Source: Escherichia coli (GTDB lineage Bacteria > Pseudomonadota > Gammaproteobacteria > Enterobacterales > Enterobacteriaceae). From it: a DNA stretch of 64,000 bases. The stretch lies in assembly GCF_003334815.1 (NCBI RefSeq), contig NZ_QOWO01000010.1; one strand, given 5' to 3'. Below the pieces are notes generated by a model. It ran no database searches and was not told the DNA's origin. It saw only the letters and a program-made list of their open reading frames with translations. The translations under genes were made by a program, and so were the position numbers. This document shows positions 60,082 through 61,026 of this stretch, piece after piece; position 1 is the first letter of the stretch; each line of letters begins with the position of its first letter.

Positions 60082-61026
60082 ATGAAGCTTAAGAACACCC
60101 TCCTGGCGTCGGCACTGCTTTCTGCTACGGCATTCTCCGTTAACGCAGCAACAGAACTGACACCGGAGCAAGCGGCAGCGGTTAAACCTTTTGACCGTGT
60201 AGTGGTTACCGGTCGTTTTAATGCTATTGGCGAAGCGGTGAAAGCCGTTTCTCGTCGCGCAGATAAAGAAGGTGCCGCCTCTTTTTATGTTGTCGACACT
60301 TCTGATTTTGGTAACAGCGGTAACTGGCGTGTGGTCGCTGACCTCTATAAAGCCGATGCTGAAAAAGCAGAAGAAACAAGTAATCGCGTAATTAACGGTG
60401 TTGTCGAACTGCCGAAAGATCAGGCTGTTCTGATTGAACCGTTTGACACGGTCACCGTCCAGGGCTTCTATCGTAGCCAGCCAGAAGTCAATGATGCCAT
60501 CACCAAAGCGGCAAAAGCGAAAGGTGCCTACTCTTTCTACATCGTTCGTCAAATCGATGCCAACCAGGGCGGCAACCAGCGTATTACTGCATTCATCTAT
60601 AAAAAAGATGCTAAGAAACGTATCGTCCAGAGCCCGGATGTGATCCCGGCAGATTCCGAAGCAGGACGTGCAGCTCTGGCTGCCGGTGGCGAAGCCGCGA
60701 AAAAAGTTGAGATCCCGGGTGTTGCGACTACCGCATCACCAAGTTCTGAAGTCGGTCGCTTCTTTGAAACCCAGTCATCAAAAGGCGGGCGTTACACCGT
60801 CACGCTCCCGGATGGCACTAAAGTCGAAGAACTGAACAAAGCGACCGCAGCGATGATGGTCCCGTTCGACAGCATCAAATTCTCTGGCAACTACGGCAAC
60901 ATGACCGAAGTCTCCTATCAGGTTGCGAAACGTGCCGCGAAGAAAGGTGCTAAGTATTACCACATCACCCGCCAGTGGCAGGAACGTGGTAATAACCTGA
61001 CCGTCAGCGCAGATCTGTATAAATAA
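60082..61026 (+). CDS. ydgH: Periplasmic protein YdgH with three tandem DUF1471-type repeats
   Basis: Signal peptide; three repeats of about 55 aa each, each ending in a ...DLYK/FIYK motif, visible in the translation. Confidence 0.88.
   Translation: MKLKNTLLASALLSATAFSVNAATELTPEQAAAVKPFDRVVVTGRFNAIGEAVKAVSRRADKEGAASFYVVDTSDFGNSGNWRVVADLYKADAEKAEETSNRVINGVVELPKDQAVLIEPFDTVTVQGFYRSQPEVNDAITKAAKAKGAYSFYIVRQIDANQGGNQRITAFIYKKDAKKRIVQSPDVIPADSEAGRAALAAGGEAAKKVEIPGVATTASPSSEVGRFFETQSSKGGRYTVTLPDGTKVEELNKATAAMMVPFDSIKFSGNYGNMTEVSYQVAKRAAKKGAKYYHITRQWQERGNNLTVSADLYK

Follow-up and report, generated by a model that had tools for sequence, protein, structure and literature searches.

The window analysed here, a 64,000-nucleotide stretch of Escherichia coli DNA, carries the ordinary, well-annotated E. 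coli ydgH gene and the features listed in Table 1. That the gene name ydgH, initially read from the sequence, is right follows from the score of the encoded protein on the NCBIfam equivalog model NF040471 (ydgH_STM1478; 560 bits versus a cutoff of 350, E 1.5e-168; aa 1-314 aligned to model positions 1-319 of 319), from the RefSeq annotation of the locus, which is likewise ydgH ("DUF1471 family protein YdgH"), and from the 100% identity of the protein with the cluster P0002 ("DUF1471 family protein YdgH [Escherichia coli]"). The ydgH-annotated DNA of E. coli genomes is 99.9% identical to the 1.6-kb stretch surrounding the ORF, and this stretch is present in nearly all complete E. coli genomes (5424/5426). 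The position of ydgH between the divergent pntA and ydgI also matches the RefSeq gene order, pntB-pntA / ydgH-ydgI-folM.

Table 1. Features of the ydgH locus. Nucleotide positions refer to the window and amino-acid positions to YdgH.
Feature	Amino acids	Nucleotides	Strand	Remarks
pntA ORF		58026..59612	-	flank of ydgH
Antisense ORF, 182 aa		60004..60552	-	opposite ydgH; TTG start; unannotated in RefSeq
Shine-Dalgarno-like AAGGA		60069..60073	+	8 nt upstream of ATG; read from sequence
ydgH coding sequence		60082..61026	+	intact ORF, ATG start, 314 aa + stop
Sec-type signal peptide	1-22	60082..60147	+	MKLKNTLLASALLSATAFSVNA, then ATE; no lipobox, no Cys; by inspection
DUF1471 domain I	23-90 (Pfam core 35-90)	60148..60351 (Pfam core 60184..60351)	+	E 2.3e-18
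Short I-II linker, ADAEKAEETSNRVING	91-106	60352..60399	+	between aligned units
DUF1471 domain II	107-174 (Pfam core 119-174)	60400..60603 (Pfam core 60436..60603)	+	E 4.3e-18
Long II-III linker	175-246	60604..60819	+	z < 1 versus repeat units
DUF1471 domain III, basic	247-314 (Pfam core 259-314)	60820..61023 (Pfam core 60856..61023)	+	E 1.6e-20
Intrinsic-terminator-like hairpin, AAGGCGGC-TTGAT-GCCGCCTT + T-rich tail		61045..61075	+	terminator scan; 19 nt past stop
Permease ORF, 460 aa		61212..62594	+	flank of ydgH

Two of the ORFs in Table 1 call for a comment. The antisense ORF, with its TTG start, its position entirely opposite ydgH and its absence from the RefSeq annotation, was taken as what it most probably is, a shadow of the coding strand. 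The longest ORF of pntA has a GTG start and comprises 528 aa, 18 codons more than the pntA gene of RefSeq, whose 1533 nt (510 aa) fit a start at the internal MRIGIPRE; this extension most probably reflects only the fact that longest ORFs were listed. Further away, the window carries an intact 344-aa ORF (55568-56602) at the place where tqsA would be expected. In E. coli strain 300709 (locus L001, 592-2903), tqsA is N-terminally truncated and stands beside a tyrosine integrase gene and a helix-turn-helix gene, a context that suggests an integrated element.

Concerning the expression signals, the GC-rich hairpin downstream of ydgH folds as RNA at −15.2 kcal/mol (z = −2.9). A sigma-E promoter upstream of ydgH has been cited (PMC11705850). 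Scanning of the 469-bp pntA/ydgH divergent intergenic region (59613..60081) with the consensus GGAACTT-N15-17-TCAAA/TCTGA/TCTAA returned a single poor match (GAAAATT...CCAAA, at 59685), and a relaxed scan of the same region (AAC core and TC start) returned 0 matches, the shuffles giving ~0.5. The nearest sigma-E candidate found by eye, TTAACTT-N16-TCAGT (59868..59895), is weak, and the cited promoter may rest on experimental mapping or on the Serratia sequence. A sigma-70 scan found 2 sites versus 2.6 expected, and the Rfam scan of 59400..61400 (E <= 1) found no RNA element. A DUF805b match of Rfam, located on the minus strand within the coding sequence, was discarded as being at chance level (14.7 bits versus a gathering score of 35.6).

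Internal Repeats of YdgH

The original prediction described YdgH as a signal peptide followed by three tandem copies of a ~55-aa repeat, each beginning with F-D-x-V/I, ending with DLYK or IYK and enclosing an A/K-rich segment. By inspection, the signal peptide has a K-rich n-region (MKLK) followed by a hydrophobic core, with V-N-A preceding the site at which cleavage is predicted (VNA-A); the first 20 residues have pLDDT values < 50 in the AlphaFold2 (AF2) model, and for the Serratia marcescens orthologue both a SignalP prediction and periplasmic fractionation have been published (PMC11705850). The three copies are there as well. PF07338, the Pfam YdgH/BhsA/McbA-like family (formerly DUF1471) whose model has 55 positions, matches YdgH three times (E from 1e-18 to 1e-20), each time from model position 1 or 2 to position 55. 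All three units possess the anticipated motifs, namely FDRV (aa 37), FDTV (aa 121) and FDSI (aa 262) at their start, an A/K-rich helix inside (AVKAVSRRADKEGAA, AITKAAKAKGAY and VAKRAAKKGAK), and (A)DLYK (aa 87-90), (A)FIYK (aa 171-174) and (A)DLYK (aa 311-314) at their end, with an F-to-K span of 53-54 aa in each.

What did not stand is the size of the unit and its tandem arrangement. The similarity between the units begins ~13 residues ahead of F-D (E-L-x-x-x-x-A...), where the solved structures have a short N-terminal helix, so that the structural repeat is ~68 aa rather than 55. Furthermore, the units are not strictly tandem, since they are separated by ~16 aa (I and II) and 72 aa (II and III).

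The similarity of the units to one another was quantified by Smith-Waterman comparison. The unit-versus-unit scores were 125, 89 and 105, for a shuffle mean of ~23 (sd 4.5), corresponding to z = 22.8, 15.6 and 18.1 and to 36-39% identity, the values for domain II versus domain I being 39% and z = 22.8. A dot plot of the protein (20-residue window, BLOSUM62), which had been put forward as the check on internal repeats, displayed exactly three off-diagonals, with offsets of 84, 141 and 225. At the DNA level, the repeat has left only a faint trace, a 25-nt family whose members lie 252 and 423 nt apart, i.e., 84 and 141 codons, and this near-absence of a DNA-level repeat indicates that the duplication is old. 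The idea that chance or low complexity produced the repeats can be dismissed. It is true that blastp of YdgH against itself returned the self-match only, but the artefact reading is opposed by the three independent full-length Pfam matches, by z values of 16-23 that none of 2000 shuffles equalled, and by the solved structures of two of the three orthologous domains.

Beyond their common motifs, the three domains differ in their calculated pI, which is 6.4 for domain I, 8.2 for domain II and 9.65 for domain III. The whole protein has zero cysteines, and no catalytic, cofactor or redox motif was recognisable in it.

Structure of the Domains

The Salmonella structures of domain I (PDB 2M2J; aligned to aa 18-91, E 2e-36) and domain III (PDB 4EVU; aligned to aa 244-314, E 6.7e-41) are 87-93% identical to the protein encoded in the window; no solved structure was found for domain II. 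An AF2 model built from a 25-sequence alignment repeats one fold pattern three times (H-E-H-E-E, per-domain pLDDT mostly 74-91). In this model, each DUF1471 unit is predicted to adopt a mixed alpha+beta fold, in which a short helix and a strand would be followed by a long helix packed on the sheet and by a beta-hairpin that closes with the xLYK strand. With Foldseek, the model was matched to 4EVU (TM-score normalised by target 0.95, rmsd 1.1 A) and 2M2J (0.90, 1.3 A), then to SrfN and, more weakly, to RcsF (2Y1B, probability 0.98, TM-score normalised by target 0.61). Despite the confident single domains, the pTM of the full-length model is 0.37, and how the domains are placed with respect to one another is not predicted. 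Within the II-III linker, AF2 proposes a helix (aa 193-201), a region of pLDDT < 50 (aa 219-236) and a small hairpin (239-241/247-250) that leads into domain III.

The residues that form the sulfate site of domain III, K253, H294, D311 and Y313 (PMC4092069), are all four present in the window protein. Their conservation in distant orthologues is moderate (16/25 for K253 and 19/25 for H294).

The Linker between Domains II and III

The II-III linker has been called unstructured in the literature, yet its two ends are conserved and only its middle is variable. The conserved head reads KDAKKR..Q...IPADSEAGRAALAAGG (pattern KDA..R..Q...IP.DSEAG.AALA.GG) and the conserved tail GRYTVTLPDGT (pattern RYTVTLPDGTK[IV]EELN); in YdgH, IPADSEAG occupies aa 186-193 and RYTVTLPDGT aa 237-246. 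Identity to the query averages 0.42 in the head, 0.27 in the middle and 0.58 in the tail, so that head and tail are conserved like the domains or better, down to ~36-40% overall identity. For comparison, the short I-II linker has a mean identity of 0.40 in the divergent set, a value similar to that of domain II and below that of domain III. The length of the middle varies between lineages, with insertions of ~56-63 residues in two relatives (P0128 and P0142; 370 and 377 aa), and the whole linker is missing in two 266-aa relatives (P0172 and P0189). With respect to function, every construct that was expressed and that rescued the mutant contained the linker (PMC11705850).

As a side observation, the gene of the linker-less three-domain protein P0172 (loci L003-L005, 4001-4801) is not located beside pntA. 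It is preceded by DsbA-like, acetyltransferase and DUF218 genes, and followed by MarR and EmrA/EmrB-like efflux genes.

Evolution of the Triple Architecture

Of the 1.84 billion cluster representatives searched exhaustively with HMMER, only 129, many of them fragments, are relatives of YdgH at E <= 1e-3. This narrow family fits the distribution reported in the preprint of Lazarus et al. (2021), in which ydgH is confined to Enterobacterales. Three domains were found in every full-length orthologue aligned, down to 30% identity, and all of these orthologues share the layout with a short I-II and a long II-III linker, save the linker-less P0172 and P0189. Across species, domains occupying the same position share a mean identity of 37-44%, as compared with 28-30% for domains occupying different positions, and the best match in another species was the same-position domain for all 36 domain instances (36/36). 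This position-specific conservation indicates that the triplication predates the divergence of the lineages and that the three copies have specialised. Judging from these alignments, the triplication is an ancient and fixed architecture in Enterobacterales, as opposed to a recent expansion.

Three rare, distant relatives, P0238 (246 aa), P0239 and P0244 (234 aa), possess only two Pfam DUF1471 matches (locus L002, 1142-1846). They align to aa ~92-314 of YdgH, i.e., to domains II and III, without domain I. The occurrence of these relatives is in line with the published dispensability of domain I.

Three other candidates were set aside as uninformative on the architecture of YdgH. P0231 (920 aa, seven stretches), a repeat protein unrelated to YdgH, has a weak match to aa 226-271 only; P0202, with 17% identity and an odd composition, has the look of a translation in the wrong frame; and in P0125 the segments are in scrambled order.

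Published Work on YdgH

It was reported by Eletsky et al. (2014) that DUF1471 proteins carry the domain either once or three times, the latter case being represented by YdgH/SssB, the domains I, II and III of which are separated by spacers of ~10 and ~70 residues (PMC4092069). In that work, domains I and III of the Salmonella protein were solved and all constructs were monomeric; the fold was nearest to that of RcsF, but without the RcsF cysteines; and domain III bound sulfate ions in the crystal and displayed shifts with sucrose-octasulfate on its basic patch (PMC4092069). The triple-DUF1471 layout of YdgH has thus been on record since 2012-2014, in Pfam, NCBIfam and the PDB as well as in publications.

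The phenotypes come from a preprint (2021) and a paper (2024) by Lazarus et al., who showed that the deletion of ydgH makes Serratia, Enterobacter and E. coli less susceptible to cefoxitin and third-generation cephalosporins and more susceptible to detergents; the cefoxitin phenotype was reproduced by a ydgH deletion in E. coli BW25113 (PMC11705850). YdgH was found to be a compact monomer (RS/Rmin < 1.3) located in the periplasm, a localisation that is needed for its function (PMC11705850). The mutant had unchanged ompC and ompF transcripts, an unchanged LPS pattern and no activation of sigma-E, and neither a compelling interactor nor synthetic defects with > 35 envelope genes were found (PMC11705850). 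The suppressors of the detergent phenotype mapped to yhdP (twice), ftsI, mepM, ftsA, lpxM and others (PMC11705850). Both the structure and the deletion phenotypes under envelope stress, which the original prediction proposed as checks, are already published. A 2025 study additionally reported that the growth deficit of a ydgH deletion mutant is ~36% 1 h after the addition of 2.5 mM H2O2 and ~2% by 5 h, and that between 1 h and 5 h the expression of ydgH increases ~13-fold (PMC12356324). Among the papers searched that follow PMC11705850, none identified a partner of YdgH.

In comparison with this literature, the additions of the present analysis are the quantification of the position-specific conservation of the domains, the conserved motifs at both ends of the linker, and the natural relatives made of domains II and III only.

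Proposed Mode of Action

Domains II and III together with the linker have been shown to be the functional part of YdgH: the construct 101C, comprising II, the linker and III, is sufficient, and the constructs lacking II, among them 187C, or lacking III, among them N244, fail (PMC11705850). From this and from the sequence features described above, we propose the following mechanism. YdgH is exported by the Sec pathway, its 22-residue signal peptide being cut off, and in its mature form is a soluble periplasmic monomer of ~31.6 kDa composed of three diverged DUF1471 alpha+beta domains with an RcsF-like fold and of the 72-residue linker. It would act by non-enzymatic binding, as suggested by the lack of Cys and of any catalytic or cofactor motif in a protein whose domains are all small and of the binding type. 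With the conserved ends of the linker keeping them in register, domains II and III could form one composite surface dominated by the basic domain III; with a pTM of 0.37 for the arrangement of the domains, this surface is something that we infer. It would engage either an anionic component of the envelope or a protein of envelope biogenesis, and this binding would tune the homeostasis of the outer membrane and the peptidoglycan, so that the loss of YdgH would decrease the susceptibility of the cells to cephalosporins and increase that to detergents. An accessory role would fall to domain I. We regard this binding mechanism, through a composite II+III surface, as the best explanation, though a tentative one to which we give somewhat less than an even chance. 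Against it stand the published searches that yielded neither a compelling interactor nor synthetic defects, the unchanged ompC/ompF transcripts and LPS pattern, the inactive sigma-E response (PMC11705850) and the moderate conservation of the sulfate site. Within this frame, the interaction of domain III with sucrose-octasulfate may reflect non-specific electrostatics.

A more precise version, which we consider possible though rather doubtful, is that the functional core is a II-III module clamped by the two linker motifs, IPxDSEAG..ALAxGG and RYTVTLPDGTK[IV]EELN, and docking on an envelope partner. The latter might belong to the YhdP/MepM/FtsI neighbourhood, as suggested by the published detergent suppressors. 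The relatives comprising only II and III could then be ancestral or reduced forms, and domain I would have been added later or as an accessory.

Alternative Explanations

The original prediction saw in the triplication a multivalent binder. This reading is weakened by the non-equivalence of the domains in sequence and pI, by the dispensability of domain I next to the need for II, III and the linker, and by the compact monomeric state of the protein (PMC11705850). If YdgH were a true multivalent binder, three equivalent sites would provide avidity for a repetitive polymer such as peptidoglycan, ECA, OPG or the LPS core. One fold does occur in three copies on one chain, and both SrfN and domain III of YdgH interact with sulfated saccharides in vitro (PMC4092069). 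However, the domains have diverged in a position-specific manner (36/36) and differ in charge; domain I is dispensable whereas II and III are each indispensable (PMC11705850), which fits distinct roles of specialised, cooperating domains instead of additive avidity; and the LPS pattern of the mutant is unchanged (PMC11705850). We therefore regard the multivalent binder as unlikely. Still less probable, in our opinion, is that YdgH is an envelope stress sensor similar to RcsF, which would monitor the outer membrane or peptidoglycan through contacts with OMPs or BAM and relay a signal. The similarity of the DUF1471 fold to RcsF, greater than to any other fold (PMC4092069), and the hypothesis of an Rcs-linked role of DUF1471 proteins (PMC12282094) speak for it, and RcsF is found among the weaker Foldseek matches (2Y1B), but with an E-value of just 0.17-0.23. 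RcsF needs disulfides, while YdgH has no Cys, and the lack of a lipobox makes YdgH a soluble protein rather than a lipoprotein. YdgH also has no N-terminal tail that would thread through an OMP. Moreover, the rcsF ydgH double mutant has no compound fitness defect and sigma-E is not activated (PMC11705850).

Two other readings assign YdgH a role outside the homeostasis of the envelope. One of them holds that YdgH, as SssB, is an exported host-interaction factor, released for instance with outer-membrane vesicles and acting on host glycans in the course of infection. YdgH does turn up in vesicle and secretome proteomics papers, but any abundant periplasmic protein is expected among the cargo of vesicles. 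In addition, ydgH belongs to the core genes of E. coli, commensals included (5424/5426 genomes), YdgH is conserved in Enterobacterales associated with plants, insects and the environment, and its antibiotic and detergent phenotypes appear in vitro, where no host is required; for these reasons, such a factor seems as improbable as the RcsF-like sensor. The last reading, by which YdgH would protect against oxidative stress or take part in oxidoreduction, relies on the transient growth deficit in H2O2 and the ~13-fold rise in expression (PMC12356324), and on the annotation of the paralogues YhcN and BsmA as peroxide-stress proteins. It is the least probable of the four, and very improbable in our view, because YdgH has neither Cys nor a cofactor or redox motif, the assignment comes in part from the adjacency to pntA, which is divergently transcribed, and the transient phenotype could be secondary to a change in envelope permeability.

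Returning to the proposed non-enzymatic binding by domains II and III, the identity of the partner would be clinically relevant, since YdgH modifies the susceptibility to beta-lactams and detergents across Enterobacterales. The conserved linker motifs and the relatives made of II and III only are modest leads for mutagenesis or interaction screens. The triple DUF1471 layout, as re-observed here, raises no new question.

Comparison with Known Systems

The closest known protein is YdgH/SssB of Salmonella Typhimurium (STM1478), which is ~90% identical to the window protein and likewise comprises 314 aa with an identical three-domain layout and linker. It differs from E. coli YdgH by few substitutions, and the claim of a role in secretion and virulence stems from the Salmonella literature only. 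The YdgH proteins of Serratia marcescens, Enterobacter cloacae and E. coli (BW25113 and O157) are products of the same gene as that of the window, with no material difference (PMC11705850), the biochemistry in that study having been performed mostly on the S. marcescens protein.

RcsF, the outer-membrane lipoprotein sensor of the Rcs phosphorelay, resembles the YdgH domains in its alpha+beta topology. It has a lipobox with Cys, two conserved disulfides and one domain, whereas YdgH has no lipobox, no Cys and three domains. As no RcsF chain was retrieved by the PDB sequence search with YdgH (E <= 1), the link between the two proteins consists of a weak structural similarity.

The single-domain paralogues YhcN, BhsA/YcfR, BsmA/YjfO, McbA/YbiM, YahO, SrfN, RclB and YbiJ share with YdgH the PF07338 domain, a Sec signal and the alpha+beta fold, and have been linked to stress, biofilm or envelope phenotypes. 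The original prediction was right in stating that this domain occurs singly in periplasmic proteins associated with stress and biofilms, as indicated by the sub-threshold matches of YdgH to the models of five of these paralogues and by published work (PMC4092069). The paralogues have ~85-100 aa and one domain, and some of them are dimeric (SrfN), whereas YdgH possesses three domains and a unique linker. On all five equivalog models, YdgH scored below the cutoff (YhcN, 86.8 versus 125 bits; BhsA, 52.2 versus 90; BsmA, 51.2 versus 100; McbA, 23.8 versus 110; RclB, 18.4 versus 100). These sub-cutoff scores on every single-domain model indicate that YdgH forms a distinct subfamily, characterised by its fixed triple architecture.
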